This document shows positions 55,323-61,032 of a stretch of DNA of 64,000 nucleotides, piece after piece. The notes under the pieces are model-generated. The model had not been told where the DNA came from. It saw nothing but the letters and a program-made list of their open reading frames with translations, and did not search any database. Origin of the DNA: Betaproteobacteria bacterium. Lineage in GTDB: Bacteria; Pseudomonadota; Gammaproteobacteria; Burkholderiales; Ferrovaceae. Where the stretch lies: NCBI GenBank assembly GCA_028868905.1, contig JAGWTQ010000001.1, positions 684 to 64,683 of the forward strand, read 5' to 3'. Every line of letters begins with the position of its first letter. Positions within the stretch are counted from its first letter, which is position 1. The position numbers were made by a program, and so were the translations under genes.

Positions 55323-55937
55323 CTACTTGGCGGCAGCCACCATGTAATCCACCGCTGCCTTGACATCCGCATCGGACAAGGAGGGATTGCCTCCCTTGGC
55401 CGGCATGGCATTTTTTCCATGCAAGGCGCTGCGGTAGAGGGCATCCATGCCTTGGGCAATCCGGGGGGCCCAGGCCGCCTTGTCGCCAAAACGCGGGGCT
55501 CCCATGGCGCCGATGCTGTGGCAGCCGGTGCACAGCGAATGGTAGGTGCTTTCGCCAGCCTTTGAAGCTGCCGGCGCAGCCGCCGCCACCGTTGCAGGCG
55601 CTGCCGGCCGGGCTGCCTCAGAAACGGGCGATGCCGGGGCTGCCGCGCCGGATTGTGCCGGCACTGCTGCCGCCACCGTCGGCACCGGGGCCGTGCGGGG
55701 AGGGGCTGCGGCTATCGACACTTCGCCCACAGGCTTGATGCGATCTTCCACCGCCCGGGCCGTTGCCGCATCCTGTGGCGCTGCTGCCGCCTCGTGCTTC
55801 GTGGCCAGCATGCTGCGCAAGCCCGCAATCACAGCAATCGTTGCGACCAGAAACAGCAGCCATTTGCTGACCGATGCCTTGTTACCCGTGTTATTGGTTG
55901 TCATGGACGGTTCTCTACCAGAATTTGGATGGGACAT
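55323..55937 (-). CDS. Membrane-anchored monohaem cytochrome c5-type protein with long Ala/Pro linker
   Basis: TM helix (WLLFLVATIAVIAGL), a roughly 100-aa Ala/Pro-rich spacer, and CTGCHSIGAMGAPRFGD...AMPAKGG (CXXCH plus Met ligand). Start is either ATG 55937 (possible leaderless start, TATAAT 7 nt upstream) or ATG 55904. Confidence 0.8.
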   Translation of the reverse strand: MSHPNSGREPSMTTNNTGNKASVSKWLLFLVATIAVIAGLRSMLATKHEAAAAPQDAATARAVEDRIKPVGEVSIAAAPPRTAPVPTVAAAVPAQSGAAAPASPVSEAARPAAPATVAAAAPAASKAGESTYHSLCTGCHSIGAMGAPRFGDKAAWAPRIAQGMDALYRSALHGKNAMPAKGGNPSLSDADVKAAVDYMVAAAK

Positions 55938-56025: not shown

Positions 56026-56102
56026 GCGCCCGTAGCTCAGTTGGATAGAGTGTTGGTTTCCGAAGCCAAAGGTCACAGGTTCGATTCCTGTCGGGCGCGC
56101 CA
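56026..56102 (+). tRNA. tRNA-Arg (anticodon CCG)
   Basis: Hand-folded cloverleaf: acceptor GCGCCCG/CGGGCGC, D arm GCTC-AGTTGGATA-GAGT, anticodon arm TTGGT-TTCCGAA-GCCAA, T arm ACAGG-TTCGATT-CCTGT, discriminator G, encoded CCA. Confidence 0.9.
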
Positions 56103-56144: not shown

Positions 56145-57179
56145 TCAGTTCGTGTTCAGCACCGCGCCAACGGGCTGGCGCCCCCTGACACGGTAGAAGT
56201 AATAACCGGTTGCCAGAAAAGACGCGAACACCATCGCAGCAAACACCAGGCTGCTGAGAGCCAGTTGCATCCCGCCTGAAATGATGTGCCCTGACGTACA
56301 GCCACCGGCCGTGCGCGCACCGAACAACAGAAAAAACCCTCCGACGAACGCCCAGAAAAAACGCTTTCCGGATGAACTGCCGTGGTAGCGGACCCACAAA
56401 TCGGGCACGCTGGAAAGCTGGAAACGGCGTCCGGCAAGGGCAAAGGCAAACCCGGCCAGCAAGGCGCCGAAAAGGAACAACAGTTCCCAGGAACCTGCCG
56501 ACTCAATTTTCTGCCAGTAGGCTGCCCCTTCCATGCCAGTCAACACCATGGCTGCGAACGGAAATGCGGACGAAGCACCGATGGGGCGCCCCGTTGCCCA
56601 CGAGGTCGTAAGCAGGGCATTGAGCAGCGCCAAACCAACCGCCGCGTAGAGCCAGCGCCAACCCTGTCGCTGCAGTCGCTGCAAAAAGAGCGCAATGCCC
56701 ATGAACAGCAGGGCAAGCGCGGTGCTGATCACGCCATAAAGATCCGGGTTGTGAACCAGATGACGCACGGAAATTTTTCCCAGATCGGGCCCGAGCAGCG
56801 GCGCGAGCCAAGGATAAACCCCTGCGAAAACGAGCGACCCGCAGAGTCCGCCTATCACGCCGACAAAGGCGTCCAGACGCCCCTGACCGAGGGAAATCAC
56901 CACGGTTCCGGGACAGTAGCCCAAGAGGGCCATGCCCACACCAAAAATAAGCCCCCCGGCAATCACGCCCGTCAGCAGAAAGGGCTTGACGTGGTAGTCC
57001 ACCCAGCCCAGCTGCATTTCCGCCTGGAACAGGAGAATGCCCAGACCGATGGTGAAGGCGATGGTCTTGGCGATGCTGAAATCCTTCAGCACCGCCATGC
57101 CTGCAATCGTGTCAAAGCAGTTCAGGCGCGCGAACTGAAGGATGGCCCCGAACAGGAATCCCCACAAGACCAGCTCCAT
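56145..57179 (-). CDS. YeeE/YedE-family inner-membrane sulfur-compound (thiosulfate-type) transporter, two-domain form
   Basis: 344 aa, polytopic, with internal duplication and conserved Cys motifs (LLGYCPGT, RTAGGCTSGH). GGGAGG SD upstream. Confidence 0.85.
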   Translation of the reverse strand: MELVLWGFLFGAILQFARLNCFDTIAGMAVLKDFSIAKTIAFTIGLGILLFQAEMQLGWVDYHVKPFLLTGVIAGGLIFGVGMALLGYCPGTVVISLGQGRLDAFVGVIGGLCGSLVFAGVYPWLAPLLGPDLGKISVRHLVHNPDLYGVISTALALLFMGIALFLQRLQRQGWRWLYAAVGLALLNALLTTSWATGRPIGASSAFPFAAMVLTGMEGAAYWQKIESAGSWELLFLFGALLAGFAFALAGRRFQLSSVPDLWVRYHGSSSGKRFFWAFVGGFFLLFGARTAGGCTSGHIISGGMQLALSSLVFAAMVFASFLATGYYFYRVRGRQPVGAVLNTN

Positions 57180-57194
57180 GTTGCACCTCCCGAA

Positions 57195-57707
57195 TCAGTT
57201 CGTGGGATCGGCCACGAAATGCTTGTGAGCCTGGAGATAAGCCACTTCGGCAAACCCTGAGGGCACGATATCGGCTTCGGAAACGTTGTACAGCTTGTGG
57301 AAATCAAGGCCCTGTTCACGCAGCGTGTTGTCACAAACGGCGAACTTGACTCCTTTCGCGCGCAACGCATCCAGCTGCTTCTGAACCTTTTCTTCAGGGT
57401 TCTTGAGCAATGTGATGCCTTTGGCATAGATCACCACAACCACATGCATGTCGCCCTTCCAGGTTTCCACAGCCTTCAGGCCGTTGGCGATGTTGCGCAG
57501 TTTCTTGCCCTGAACGCCTTTGTCATCGGTGGTCAAGGGCACCACGATGTTCATCTGTCCGAATGACTCATGATGAATCTTTGGCTGGACATATTCGCTT
57601 TTTGCTTCGGCAGCCGTCGGAGCGTCCGCCGCAAAAATGCTGTGGGACATCATCACGGCGATTGCCGCGGCAGAAGTCATCAATGCCAGTTTTTGTCGAA
57701 GTGCCAT
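57195..57707 (-). CDS. Exported DsrE/DsrF-like (COG1416-type) protein
   Basis: Sec signal (AAAIAVMMSHSIFA-AD), then MNIVVPL...HVVVVIYAKGITLL...GVKFAVCDNTL, resembling the DsrE-like fold with its conserved Cys. GAGGAGAA SD upstream of ATG 57707. Confidence 0.6.
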   Translation of the reverse strand: MALRQKLALMTSAAAIAVMMSHSIFAADAPTAAEAKSEYVQPKIHHESFGQMNIVVPLTTDDKGVQGKKLRNIANGLKAVETWKGDMHVVVVIYAKGITLLKNPEEKVQKQLDALRAKGVKFAVCDNTLREQGLDFHKLYNVSEADIVPSGFAEVAYLQAHKHFVADPTN

Positions 57708-57756
57708 GGTGATTTTCTCCTCGTGGGTGTCTTTTGAATGAATGTGCACAGTGCTT

Positions 57757-58791
57757 CTACTTGGCCTTGCTTCCGGAATAAGACTTGAATCCGTAGCGTT
57801 TGAAAATGTCCTGGGCCTCCGGCGAAGTCAGGAACTCGACCCACTGCTTAGCCGCTTCGGGATGCGGAGCCCCCTTGACCACTGCGGCCCCATAGGTGCC
57901 CGTGGCATTCTGCTCGTCAGGAATGGCAACATGGCTGATCGGATTTCCGATCATCTCCTGAAACGCCGCTTCCGACTGCCAAGTCACGCCGGCCTGCGCC
58001 TTTCCCTGCATCAGGTACATGGGCGACTGGCGATGATGGATGTGGGTGAGGATGGTTTCCCCGTTCTTTACCTTGGTTTCGTACACCGCACGCACCAAGG
58101 CTTCGCCGCCCGCCTTGGCCAGACTCTCCTTGATTTGTCGGCCCACGCCCTCAAAGGCTGGATTGGGCATGACGAGTCGAACACCCGGCTTGCCCAGATC
58201 GTTCAGGCTGGTGATGCGGGCTGGATTGCCTTTGGGAACCATGATGGTGAGGGTATTGGTGGCATAGGGCACGGCCGTCCCCGTGGCCAGCCCCTCCTTG
58301 ATGGTGCTTTCCACCCGTCGCAACCCGCCTGCATACACATCGGCATGGACGGTCCAGGTCATATTGCCGACCGTGATCGTGCCGCCGTTGCGCAACTGCT
58401 CAACCAGCAGGCCGGGCGGCAGCGTTTCGTAGTAGATCTTTCCCTTCAGTGCGGGATGTGCTTGCTCAAACGCATGCACCAGCGGCGCCATCACGAAAAA
58501 GTAATTGCCTCCGACAAAGATGGACAATTCCGAGTTGACGGGATTTCCATGCAAATCCGGCAGGTTATCCACTTCCGGCACCGTAAATTCCAGCCCCCTC
58601 GATTGAACGGGGTTATTTGCACCGTTGCTCCAGGGCGGGTAAACACCCGGGGGCTGACTGGCTGAGCCCGAAGTCCCGGCTGCCGCGGTTCCTGCCAGGC
58701 ATTGAGCCATCAGGCCCACCAGCAAACCAGTCTTGAGGGCCATCCGCCGGGTGCCGGGCGCCGCCTTGATCCAACGTGAAATTGAAACCAT
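57757..58791 (-). CDS. Orphan periplasmic solute-binding protein (ModA/sulfate-binding-like PBP2 fold) with twin-arginine-type signal
   Basis: T-R-R-M-A-L-K followed by a mildly hydrophobic h-region and AAA. The mature part resembles SBP_bac_11/ModA-like proteins. No permease or ATPase genes are adjacent. Start is ATG 58791 (GGAG 6 nt upstream) or 58803. Confidence 0.7.
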   Translation of the reverse strand: MVSISRWIKAAPGTRRMALKTGLLVGLMAQCLAGTAAAGTSGSASQPPGVYPPWSNGANNPVQSRGLEFTVPEVDNLPDLHGNPVNSELSIFVGGNYFFVMAPLVHAFEQAHPALKGKIYYETLPPGLLVEQLRNGGTITVGNMTWTVHADVYAGGLRRVESTIKEGLATGTAVPYATNTLTIMVPKGNPARITSLNDLGKPGVRLVMPNPAFEGVGRQIKESLAKAGGEALVRAVYETKVKNGETILTHIHHRQSPMYLMQGKAQAGVTWQSEAAFQEMIGNPISHVAIPDEQNATGTYGAAVVKGAPHPEAAKQWVEFLTSPEAQDIFKRYGFKSYSGSKAK

Positions 58792-58818
58792 GCGTGACTC
58801 CATTTCCTAAAAGATTAA

Positions 58819-60852
58819 TCAGTACCGGGCATCAGCCGGCTTGCCGCCTTTGGGCCAGTCTTTCTTCTTGTCCACAAAATCCGGGCGAGGCTTGTGCGTG
58901 AAGTACTGCGCCACATCCACTGCTTCCTGGTCTGTCAGGCCACCCTGGCCCAGCGGGAATGCCGGGCTGGCCGATATGGGCATGTTGTGCTTGACGAACG
59001 CGGCCGCCGTGTAAGTGCGTGCCATGCCGGCGCCGATGTTGAAAGACTGCTTGCCCCACAAGGGCGGAAACACGAAGCTGCCATCCTTGCGCTGCAGCCC
59101 TTCGCCATTGTCGCCGTGGCACAAGGCACACTGTCCCTCATACACCTTCTTGCCATTGGCTGCGTCGGGAACGATGTTGTGATCCATTTTCCCGACCCCG
59201 CGCCCCGGTATCGGCTGGCCTGCCTTGACGTCCACTTTCATGGTGTCCATGAAAGCCACCATGGCCAGCATTTCCCTGGAACCCTTGTCCAGCACCTTCC
59301 CGTTCATGGAACGCCGCATGCAGCCGTTCAGGCGATCCGTGATGTCGATGATTCTTCCCGAACGGGGACGGTAAGTGGGAAACAGCGCTGCCACGCCAGG
59401 GTAGGGGGCTGCATGCCCCACCGTTCCGCCATTCAGGTGACAGCTCGTGCATTCGAGAACGTCGCCCACGTGTTGCGGCATCAGCTCCTTGCTGTCCATC
59501 ATCAGCCGCATGCCGTAAACCAGTTGTTCCGCGTTCGGCATGGCCAGAAAGTCTGCAAAGCGGGGCAGTGCCGATTTCGACATTTCCTCAGGCCTGACAC
59601 CGACCGCTTCGCGTACCTTCCTGACGTCTGCTGCAGTCACGGGCAGACCGTGATTCCCCCATTGGGCACGTACGAACGAAATGATCTCGGCCAATTCCTG
59701 GTCGTTCAGGCGGCCGTAGCCCGGCATGTAAAACCCGTGCCGGGCGCCTGCCGTTTCAGGCGATTTCCAGCCGCTCAGGACCACATGGATGACTGAAGTG
59801 GGATCTTTCGATTGCACGGACGAATTGTTGGCAAGGGGCGGAAAAAATTTCTCCACGCCGCGCCCGTCGTACTGGTGACAGGTCGAACAGAACTGCACGT
59901 ATCCAAGTCCGCCGCGGGTTTTGTACAAATCGCTTTCATGCACCCTGGCCACTTCGTGGGGCATGACGGCACGGGTTTCTTCATTGGAGGACAAGGAACT
60001 CAGGTATTCCCCGATGGCTGCCAGGTCGCTGTCAGTAAAATGCTGGGAACTGTGATTGACGACTTCCGTCATGCTTCCATAGGCCGTGGCATAGCCGTTG
60101 TGGCCGGTTTTCAGGAACTGGGCGAAGGCCTCGGCCGGCCACCCGTTGTGCAAACTGACGGCATGCCAGTTGTCCACGGTGGATCCGGTCAGAAAACTCA
60201 CCCCGCTTTCGCCCTGGTCGCTTTGCGCCTTCTCCTGCATGCCGATGCCGCGGGGCGAATGACAGGCACCGCAGTGTCCCAGGCTCTGAACGATGTAGGC
60301 GCCACGATTCCATTGTGGTGATTTGCCGGCGTCGGGCATGAAGGGAGTGTCTTTCAGGAAGGCGATATTCCAGAACTTGAGGCCAAATCGCATGCTGAAG
60401 GGCCACTGCATGTGATTTTCCTTGTTGGCCTGCACCACCGGCTGCACCCCTTTCATCAGGTAGGCGTAAAGGGCGCGCATGTCCTGCGGGCTGATTTTGG
60501 CAAAGGAGGGATAGGGCATGACGGGATACAGGTTTTCCCCGTCGGCTGCCACGCCCTGGCGCATGACGCGGTCGAATGCTTCAAACGAATAACCACCAAT
60601 GCCGGTACGGGCATCGGGCGTGATGTTGGTGGAATGGATCGTTCCGAACGGCGTGTCCATTTCCAACCCGCCAGCCAATGGCTTCCCGCCTTTGGCGGTA
60701 TGGCAGGCCGCACAGTCGCCCAGATGCGCAAGATATTCTCCACGCTTGACCTGGTCATCACCCGGTTCGCTGGCGGCAGCATGAAGTGCTGGCGCAAAAG
60801 CAGACAGAAGCAGTGCAGCCGTTGCGGCCGCTGCCGTATATTCCCCCCTCAC
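58819..60852 (-). CDS. Periplasmic pentahaem c-type cytochrome: N-terminal trihaem (alcohol/gluconate-dehydrogenase cytochrome subunit-like) module fused to a C-terminal TsdA-like dihaem module
   Basis: GTG start with GGGGGAGA SD and a signal peptide. Five CXXCH motifs at C47, C194, C322, C468 and C575. The C-terminal 240 aa carry TsdA-like blocks (FPTYRPRSGR, RLNGCMRRSMNG, FPPLWGKQSFNIGAGM, AAAFVKHNMP, LTDQEAVDVAQYF). Confidence 0.85.
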   Translation of the reverse strand: MRGEYTAAAATAALLLSAFAPALHAAASEPGDDQVKRGEYLAHLGDCAACHTAKGGKPLAGGLEMDTPFGTIHSTNITPDARTGIGGYSFEAFDRVMRQGVAADGENLYPVMPYPSFAKISPQDMRALYAYLMKGVQPVVQANKENHMQWPFSMRFGLKFWNIAFLKDTPFMPDAGKSPQWNRGAYIVQSLGHCGACHSPRGIGMQEKAQSDQGESGVSFLTGSTVDNWHAVSLHNGWPAEAFAQFLKTGHNGYATAYGSMTEVVNHSSQHFTDSDLAAIGEYLSSLSSNEETRAVMPHEVARVHESDLYKTRGGLGYVQFCSTCHQYDGRGVEKFFPPLANNSSVQSKDPTSVIHVVLSGWKSPETAGARHGFYMPGYGRLNDQELAEIISFVRAQWGNHGLPVTAADVRKVREAVGVRPEEMSKSALPRFADFLAMPNAEQLVYGMRLMMDSKELMPQHVGDVLECTSCHLNGGTVGHAAPYPGVAALFPTYRPRSGRIIDITDRLNGCMRRSMNGKVLDKGSREMLAMVAFMDTMKVDVKAGQPIPGRGVGKMDHNIVPDAANGKKVYEGQCALCHGDNGEGLQRKDGSFVFPPLWGKQSFNIGAGMARTYTAAAFVKHNMPISASPAFPLGQGGLTDQEAVDVAQYFTHKPRPDFVDKKKDWPKGGKPADARY

Positions 60853-60880
60853 GATCTCCCCCTGCGGTATATAACTTTAT

Positions 60881-60896
60881 AGAATAAGCATATTCT
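60881..60896. promoter_or_regulatory. Inverted repeat in the AT-rich region upstream of the cytochrome operon (candidate operator)
   Basis: AGAATA-AGCA-TATTCT. It sits about 15 nt upstream of a TATATA/TTATAT -10-like element on the minus strand. Confidence 0.3.
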
Positions 60897-61032
60897 TTAA
60901 ATAAATATCACATTTTGCCGAAGGATACATCACTAAATGTAAGTACCCCTCAGAACGTGCCACAGCGCGCCGGATTGCGGCACACTACCGGGACATGACC
61001 CCAGCCCCTGCAGCCGCCGACGTTCAACGCAC

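Follow-up and report, generated by a model that had tools for sequence, protein, structure and literature searches.

Do the four adjoining minus-strand genes at positions 56145–60852 of the 64,000 nt stretch of betaproteobacterial DNA analysed here (the window) form a working unit, and what chemistry would such a unit carry out? As delimited from the open reading frame (ORF) list and a reading of the sequence, the genes encode, in order, a c-type cytochrome, a substrate-binding protein (SBP), a DsrE-like protein and a YeeE-family membrane protein. Thiosulfate and tetrathionate hold a central place among the intermediates of the sulfur cycle. The locus touches on three open questions: the exit of electrons from TsdA-type enzymes, the role of the abundant sulfur-induced "sulfate/molybdate-binding proteins" of acidophiles, and the route of sulfur from periplasm to cytoplasm. 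The four genes gather candidates for all three in one predicted transcription unit, which also has culturable hosts, Sideroxyarcus emersonii and Sideroxydans sp. CL21. The comparisons given below point to a periplasmic process in which thiosulfate is oxidised to tetrathionate while carrier proteins take up sulfur for import; this reading of the operon is held with moderate confidence.

The order cytochrome-sbp-dsrE-yeeE is present in 12 loci (the window, L001, L085–L088, L090, L092, L093, L095, L108 and L124). This number is a lower bound, i.e., there are at least 12 independent loci. The other 11 show 60–97% protein identity and have differing flanks, and because the same order recurs in these different surroundings the arrangement is not due to chance. 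The comparison indicates a genuine conserved operon of iron/sulfur-oxidising Betaproteobacteria. The first-pass annotation had taken the four genes as one module from the window alone, and the neighbourhood survey that yielded the 11 further loci agrees with it.

The cytochrome has a Sec-type leader (…APALHA followed by AAS) and five CXXCH motifs, at residues 47, 194, 322, 468 and 575. Export signals here and in the other proteins were judged by eye from the leader sequences. Pfam matches are to Cytochrom_C and SoxA-TsdA_cyt-c, the latter with 39.8 bits against a 27-bit cut-off. In phmmer comparisons, residues 441–663 align with chain residues 22–241 of the 252 residues of TsdA from Allochromatium vinosum (4WQ7, E 7e-48) and with its K208N variant (4WQC, E 1e-48). 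Cys511 (positions 59320–59322), within RLNGCMRRSMNG, aligns to RIGDCFERSLNG, the segment of A. vinosum TsdA that contains the haem ligand Cys96. The cysteine that serves as axial ligand of the active-site haem is Cys96 in A. vinosum and Cys138 in Campylobacter jejuni TsdA, and haem 2 of the C. jejuni enzyme has a methionine ligand, Met255, which corresponds to Met209 in A. vinosum (PMC5146829). Asn623-Met624 (KHNMP) of the cytochrome aligns to Lys208-Met209 (KHKMP) of A. vinosum TsdA; an Asn before the Met is also found in C. jejuni TsdA and in the K208N variant. C511, N623 and M624 are invariant across 12 diverse homologues from Alpha-, Beta- and Gammaproteobacteria. By sequence the TsdA domain is thus complete and retains both the catalytic Cys and the Met ligand; from its family it is predicted to interconvert thiosulfate and tetrathionate.

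The N-terminal part of the cytochrome is of a different kind. The first-pass annotation described a TsdA-fusion pentahaem cytochrome; the TsdA fusion stands, but the three N-terminal haems are not generic and form an electron-transfer unit of the AdhB/GDH-beta/FdhC type. Residues 12–415 match the ADH cytochrome subunit 8GY2_B (phmmer E 3e-100), GDH beta 8HDD_B (2e-98) and FDH subunit C 7W2J_C (4e-72), with approximately 45% identity over roughly 400 residues. The matches stop at residues 435 of 478, 427 of 482 and 451 of 486 in the three reference chains, respectively. They end 35–55 residues before the reference C-termini, and the C-terminal tails of these subunits therefore have no counterpart in the cytochrome. 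No hydrophobic segment of transmembrane strength is present in the cytochrome, where no 19-residue stretch reaches a Kyte-Doolittle value of 1.6, and neither the window nor any SBP-type locus has a gene for a PQQ, FAD or Mo catalytic subunit. The unit is like AdhB, GDH beta and FdhC in having three haem c sites and in being suited to electron output from a periplasmic catalytic unit. It differs in that TsdA takes the place of the C-terminal tail, no anchor is predicted and no catalytic-subunit gene is nearby. Likeness to TsdA/TsdB and to the TsdBA proteins (A. vinosum 4WQ7; Marichromatium purpuratum 5LO9) lies in the Cys/His active-site haem, the Met-ligated second haem and, for TsdBA, the joining of TsdA to an electron-accepting cytochrome in one polypeptide. 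In TsdBA, however, the partner is the dihaem TsdB, whereas here it is a trihaem unit of about 400 residues, which gives five haems in total.

The DsrE-like protein matches Pfam DsrE (PF02635) with 34.2 bits against a cut-off of 22.7, and MTH1491 (1L1S) by sequence with an E value of 2.7e-6. An AlphaFold2 model (pLDDT 86) is placed by Foldseek near 1L1S (TMt 0.88), 2PD2 and DsrEFH 2HY5 (2HY5_B, E 5.6e-4). The N-terminal hydrophobic leader ends in FAADA, and a leader is present in all homologues, unlike in the cytoplasmic DsrEFH, TusBCD and DsrE3. These properties identify the protein, at the level of sequence and model, as a predicted exported DsrE-fold protein of the MTH1491/COG1416 type. Its single cysteine, Cys125 (positions 57333–57335), lies in the motif GVxFxVC(D/N)N and is invariant in a 24-sequence alignment; it could be a sulfur carrier. 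The protein shares the DsrE fold and a conserved Cys with DsrEFH and DsrE3A, but it belongs to the uncharacterised MTH1491/COG1416 branch, is monomer-sized and is exported. There is a precedent for such a location, as a DsrE-like protein encoded in the sox operon of Methylovirgula thiovorans has been proposed to act in the periplasm in sulfur hand-off or import (PMC9371685). Few proteins belong to this subfamily. When 1.84 billion proteins were searched with a profile, 12 representatives were obtained at E≤1e-30 and 119 at E≤1e-10.

Two observations on this subfamily lie outside the four-gene arrangement. In L121 (20–2285) a 162 amino acid (aa) homologue is directly 3' of a SoxB-like gene, so that the exported DsrE subfamily apparently has a connection to the Sox pathway too. 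In L089 (8477–10552) and L091 (7577–9595) the genes cytochrome-sbp-dsrE are followed by more exported COG1416-type paralogues of 188–192 aa, with the motif YECGVAM, and a porin-like gene of about 455 aa.

The SBP belongs to Pfam SBP_bac_11 (6.6e-56). Scores against the NCBIfam models ModA, Sbp and CysP are 48, 37 and 34 bits, all below the respective cut-offs of 62.5, 155.5 and 308 bits. The AlphaFold2 model (pLDDT 81) is nearest by Foldseek to ModA, PEB3, AcfC and SubI, with TMt values of 0.66–0.85. A class-II periplasmic binding protein of the ModA/Sbp/PEB3 group, predicted to be exported, is indicated. Mature SBP has no cysteine, and no permease or ATPase genes are present beside sbp in the window or in the examined loci with called genes, L081–L087. 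The protein carries an N-terminal extension, PPW…NNP…FTVPEVDNLPDFHG (starting PPW.xG.NNP; residues 52–82, positions 58546–58638), that ModA and Sbp do not have. The extension is invariant across all partner types and has an AlphaFold pLDDT below 50; it could be a docking segment. The earlier assignment of a Tat signal is doubtful: apart from the window protein, only its nearest relative has the twin-arginine motif TRRMALK, and most orthologues carry ordinary Sec-type leaders. Tat export was accordingly rejected as a family feature.

The fourth protein matches Pfam Sulf_transp (1.8e-31) and YeeE of Spirochaeta thermophila (6LEO, E 2.4e-16). C21, C89 and C294 align to the three essential cysteines of the S. 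thermophila protein, C22, C91 and C293. The scores are far under the TsuA equivalog cut-offs (79.9 against 400 and 17.6 against 645). It is like YeeE/YeeD (TsuA/TsuB) and SoxT1A in the nine-helix YeeE architecture and the three conserved cysteines, and SoxT1A also shares the sulfur-oxidiser setting (PMC11582611). The gene differs from these in being placed with periplasmic redox and binding proteins and not with sox or regulator genes, and in having no adjacent YeeD or TusA gene. In the window yeeE is followed by a tRNA gene; in L086 a TusA gene is two genes downstream. Taken together, profile models, PDB matches and the two AlphaFold models (SBP and DsrE-like protein) support the TsdA, SBP, DsrE and YeeE assignments of the first-pass annotation.

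Gene order outside the 12 loci shows which of these parts belong together. The order sbp-dsrE-cytochrome is found in L038, L099, L102, L117 and L119, and cytochrome-sbp-dsrE without yeeE in L089, L091 and L098. In L100 (1181–2938) the DsrE-like gene precedes a DoxDA gene that has 53% identity to Acidithiobacillus DoxDA, and sbp is divergent. A trio of tsd, sbp and cytochrome genes is present in L002, L003, L024, L030, L034 and L037, preceded in three of these by a divergent LysR gene; Tsd of L002 scores 386 bits on the NCBIfam thiosulfate dehydrogenase model NF052225 (cut-off 300 bits). An sbp gene adjoins the DsrE-like gene in 25 of the 31 loci with enough upstream sequence. Among the 37 with enough sequence downstream, the next gene is yeeE in 13, a cytochrome in eight and doxDA in one. 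Sulfur hand-off by the DsrE-like protein and import by YeeE had been proposed for the module, but with yeeE following in only 13 of 37 loci, and a cytochrome or DoxDA in nine, transfer from DsrE to YeeE is not the core. On the basis of these arrangements, the recurring core appears to consist of the SBP, a small exported Cys protein (DsrE-like or Tsd) and a thiosulfate-oxidising redox enzyme (pentahaem cytochrome or DoxDA), with YeeE an addition in one clade. By gene position the DsrE-like protein replaces Tsd. A neighbour-joining tree places the DsrE-associated SBPs in a single clade, which itself falls within the Tsd-associated SBPs. The genes are closely linked and have co-evolved. The two Cys proteins have colinear motifs: GVxF(x)xC(x)N, RN and a C-terminal (V/T)PxG…LQ. 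As a separate observation, the DsrE-like gene of L100 sits where Tsd does in Acidithiobacillus ferrooxidans.

The same arrangements bear on two other explanations. One is assimilatory uptake of thiosulfate, in which the SBP would be a high-affinity receptor handing its ligand to YeeE as a binding-protein-dependent secondary transporter, and the cytochrome and DsrE-like protein would be incidental or protective. Membership of the SBP in the Sbp/CysP/ModA oxyanion group, the import of thiosulfate by YeeE-family proteins (PMC11073785) and the presence of sbp and yeeE in one operon without ABC components are consistent with this. We nevertheless consider it improbable: most arrangements that contain the SBP lack YeeE (tsd-sbp-doxDA, tsd-sbp-cytochrome and sbp-dsrE-cytochrome), the SBP's constant neighbours are a Cys protein and a redox enzyme, and direct adjacency of sbp and yeeE was never seen in the loci compared, a dsrE-like gene always being placed between them. 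The other is a module for a non-sulfur oxyanion such as molybdate, tungstate or selenite, to which the JGI naming of SBP homologues as molybdate-binding proteins, the ModA model as best NCBIfam match of the SBP and a weak match of the YeeE protein to the selenium-linked YedE branch (YedE/FdhT, 21 bits) could be related. Both scores, however, are far under their cut-offs, the module has no gene for a molybdoenzyme or selenoprotein associated with it, and its partners, i.e., the TsdA domain, DoxDA, Tsd and the SoxB of L121, are all thiosulfate enzymes. A non-sulfur substrate is held to be highly improbable.

The closest known system is in Acidithiobacillus. The gene order SLAC1-Tsd-SBP-DoxDA-rhodanese-rhodanese-ResA-DoxDA-SBP-Tsd is that of the published thiosulfate-metabolic cluster AFE_0041–0050, and the SBP of the window is 64–67% identical over its full length to the SBPs of the Acidithiobacillus tsd-sbp-doxDA genes (P0238, P0221 and the L081 genes). 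The AFE_0041–0050 genes (tsd-sbp-doxDA-rhd, duplicated), including the homologous SBP, are induced on sulfur (PMC2754497), and Tsd of A. ferrooxidans (AFE_0042) has been purified as a tetrathionate-forming thiosulfate dehydrogenase (reviewed in PMC6335251). Both systems have orthologous SBPs with no ABC partner, periplasmic proteins, pairing of the SBP with a small exported GVxFxxCxN Cys protein, and a tetrathionate-forming redox enzyme. A. ferrooxidans has the membrane-bound DoxDA as redox enzyme, in contrast to the soluble pentahaem TsdA fusion found here; its Cys protein is a Tat-exported Tsd of 260–270 aa, and that of the window a Sec-exported DsrE-fold protein of 170 aa. The rhodanese and ResA genes are absent and a YeeE gene is added. 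No match to tsd or doxDA was found in the window, where the DsrE-like and pentahaem genes hold those positions. These comparisons identify the operon as an uncharacterised variant of the Acidithiobacillus tsd-sbp-doxDA cluster, with the SBP/Cys-protein pair apparently the conserved core common to both. The family of each part is already known, and the SBP/Cys-protein/redox-enzyme logic is precedented in A. ferrooxidans. What appears to be new is the AdhB-TsdA pentahaem fusion as redox partner, the DsrE-fold protein for Tsd and the addition of YeeE. The statement that the combination is not a described system thus holds in part: the SBP is orthologous to that of a described cluster, tsd-sbp-doxDA-rhd (PMC6335251), and no description of either the four-gene cluster or the AdhB-TsdA fusion was found in the searchable literature.

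In the oxidative reading, the TsdA domain would join two thiosulfates into tetrathionate at the Cys-ligated haem, an activity expected from its family. The two electrons would pass by the His/Met haem into the fused trihaem domain, a built-in acceptor with a TsdB-like job, and aerobic respiration would receive them from there, the most likely link being a c-type cytochrome or oxidase. Quinone is a less likely acceptor because there is no membrane anchor and because the thiosulfate/tetrathionate couple (+198 mV) lies above ubiquinone. Reduction of quinone by the trihaem domain was judged unlikely on these grounds and on the missing C-terminal tails of the reference subunits. The SBP and the single-Cys DsrE-fold protein, which are associated by gene order, would act as an accessory pair; in Acidithiobacillus such a pair would serve DoxDA, with Tsd standing in for the DsrE-like protein. 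The SBP may capture the oxyanion, thiosulfate or tetrathionate. A thiosulfonate or sulfane group may be transferred to Cys125, much as DsrE3A gives a Cys-S-thiosulfonate on reaction with tetrathionate (PMC4175335). YeeE, in this clade only, would move thiosulfate or carrier-derived sulfur into the cytoplasm for oxidation or assimilation.

The oxidative direction is preferred because the accessory pair accompanies DoxDA in aerobic thiosulfate oxidisers and because the hosts are thiosulfate-oxidising microaerophiles. S. emersonii and Sideroxydans lithotrophicus are reported to oxidise thiosulfate (references in PMC10734462; PMC8788666), and the thiosulfate product of S. lithotrophicus ES-1 is tetrathionate only (PMC8788666). 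The setting of the CL21 copy (L086) beside aprBA, sat, sulP, tusA and dsrE supports the same reading; together with the sulfur-induced homologous SBP of A. ferrooxidans (PMC2754497), it substantiates the sulfur-compound theme that had been proposed from the window.

Several points weigh against this interpretation. TsdA enzymes are reversible, and the Asn-Met site matches that of the tetrathionate-reducing C. jejuni enzyme (PMC5146829). The specificity of the SBP is not legible from its sequence, with scores under the ModA, CysP and Sbp cut-offs. Homology between the DsrE-like protein and Tsd is no more than a possibility: hhalign gives a probability of 12.5% and an E value of 0.0023, with the Cys motif alone aligned. 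No Pfam or PDB relative of Tsd was found, no NCBIfam match of the DsrE-like protein was obtained at E≤0.01, the Tsd model NF052225 included, and no Tsd-length protein is among the best 150 matches of its profile search. The yeeE gene is missing from many versions of the module, and YeeD is essential for YeeE in Escherichia coli (PMC11073785), whereas no YeeD/TusA partner is adjacent in the window. Finally, pentahaem homologues that stand alone adjoin TtrS/TtrR-like genes in facultative anaerobes, which points to tetrathionate reduction there.

These stand-alone homologues are part of a large family. Full-length fusion homologues fall into more than 100 clusters at 57–91% identity, and some 45 genomes, among them those of Pseudomonas, Cupriavidus, Massilia, Rhodoferax, Xanthobacter and Rhodopseudomonas, yielded a full-length copy. 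The fusion is thus widespread, yet it is annotated merely as "c-type cytochrome". In five Pseudomonas loci (L010, L014, L015, L017 and L018) the pentahaem gene follows an 813 aa gene of the penicillin-amidase family and no SBP, DsrE or YeeE gene is nearby; therefore the fusion evidently works without the accessories in many bacteria. Other stand-alone pentahaem genes (L005:10062–12555, L006, L025, L026, L039 and L051), from Rhodoferax, Acidovorax, Phaeovulum, Thauera and Rhodocyclaceae, adjoin a histidine kinase with a periplasmic Phosphonate-bd domain. The best NCBIfam match of this kinase is TtrS, with 360 bits against a 750-bit cut-off, and a FixJ/TtrR-like response regulator is alongside, which suggests tetrathionate-responsive control of the stand-alone genes in those organisms.

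The operon might instead run in the opposite direction, as a respiratory tetrathionate reductase. Electrons from quinol or a low-potential cytochrome would enter the trihaem domain and pass to TsdA, where tetrathionate would be split into two thiosulfates; the SBP would capture tetrathionate and YeeE would import thiosulfate, a known YeeE substrate (PMC11073785). This is a serious rival, although one we regard as possible rather than probable. The bidirectionality of TsdA and the haem-2 site like that of the C. jejuni tetrathionate reductase (PMC5146829) are consistent with it, as are the TtrS/TtrR-like two-component genes beside the six kinase-linked loci and the downhill path from quinol (about +100 mV) to tetrathionate (+198 mV, quoted in PMC9562282). 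The TtrS match is under its cut-off, however, and no TtrSR genes adjoin any SBP-containing version among the loci compared. The SBP and Tsd partners elsewhere accompany the thiosulfate-oxidising DoxDA in aerobic acidophiles (PMC6335251), and the host clade consists of microaerophilic lithotrophs reported as thiosulfate oxidisers (PMC8788666). The Asn itself is not diagnostic of direction because the N254K change in the C. jejuni enzyme did not simply shift its directionality; on these mutant data the Asn-Met site was rejected as a direction marker.

An extension of the preferred oxidative reading can be put forward tentatively, and we hold it to be doubtful. The SBP and the small exported Cys protein may be a portable accessory pair with two alternative docking partners, DoxDA and the AdhB-TsdA fusion, which both form tetrathionate but are unrelated to each other. 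Together with YeeE, the pair would then give Gallionellaceae a complete route without tetrathionate hydrolase, in which thiosulfate is converted to tetrathionate, the carrier Cys takes the thiosulfonate and YeeE imports it. Formation of tetrathionate by S. lithotrophicus ES-1 without induction of tsdAB could also be accounted for in this way, if that strain has the operon.

The features of the locus and the principal loci compared are listed in Table 1. The intergenic gaps are, in order, 15 (27 if the SBP starts at 58791), 49 and 15 nt. The later SBP start is more likely because homologues are 344 aa in length and have the same MVSIS… start. No convincing terminator was found within the operon. 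The GC content is 49% in the intergenic region upstream of the cytochrome gene and 36% in its AT-rich core (60853–60960), compared with 59% in the operon and 62% in the window. ORFs, sequence and GC values thus confirm the first description of the locus as four same-strand genes with gaps of 15–49 nt, each with its own Shine-Dalgarno sequence, behind an AT-rich upstream region. The absence of an ABC (ATP-binding cassette) permease or ATPase and of a TusA/YeeD-like partner near the operon, also noted then, is confirmed by the gene and domain calls of the window.

Table 1. Coordinates of the operon, its domains and flanking features, and selected loci with the same gene order
Feature	Position	Strand	Details
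Cytochrome gene	58819-60852	-	GTG start behind GGGGGAG; 677 aa
Trihaem domain	59608-60753	-	residues ~34-415; haems C47, C194, C322
TsdA domain	58864-59532	-	residues 441-663; haems C468, C575
SBP gene	57757-58791	-	ATG 58791 behind GGAG; 344 aa; alternative earlier ATG 58803 (ORF tool: 57757-58803)
DsrE-like gene	57195-57707	-	ATG behind GAGGAG; 170 aa; mechanical ORF begins at GTG 57749
YeeE-family gene	56145-57179	-	Shine-Dalgarno GGGAGGTG; 344 aa
tRNA-Arg(CCG)	56026-56102	+	ARAGORN; convergent, sets the 3' boundary of the operon
Upstream intergenic/leader	60853-61032 (180 nt)	-	between the cytochrome gene and a divergent exported alpha/beta-hydrolase gene
L001			metagenome-assembled genome; 91-97% identity; full four-gene order
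L085			Sideroxyarcus emersonii; full four-gene order
L086			Sideroxydans sp. CL21; full four-gene order; between sat-aprBA and sulP-tusA-dsrE
L087			metagenome contig, syntenic with the window; full four-gene order

No sigma-70 consensus promoter was found in the region upstream of the cytochrome gene. A common regulatory motif 5' of this gene was sought and given up, as divergence among the regions preceding it in 13 loci is too great; across the 13 regions, AAAATGTGnTATT is common only to the window and its closest relatives, L001 and L087. The sequence AAAATGTG(A/T)TATT at positions 60890–60905 is likewise restricted to these three. Within the operon, the GC fraction of the DsrE-like gene is 0.53, compared with 0.60 in its three neighbours.

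The flanking genes are housekeeping genes (gcvH, tpx, a pfkB-family kinase, an acyltransferase and apaH), together with those for the exported alpha/beta hydrolase and a membrane-anchored cytochrome c. The latter gene (positions 55323–55937, minus strand) is just past the tRNA gene on the operon strand. It encodes a 204 aa monohaem protein whose N-terminus forms a transmembrane helix and which has a linker, rich in Ala and Pro, of about 90 residues. The gene is considered to lie outside the conserved module because it is present in L001 and absent from L087.

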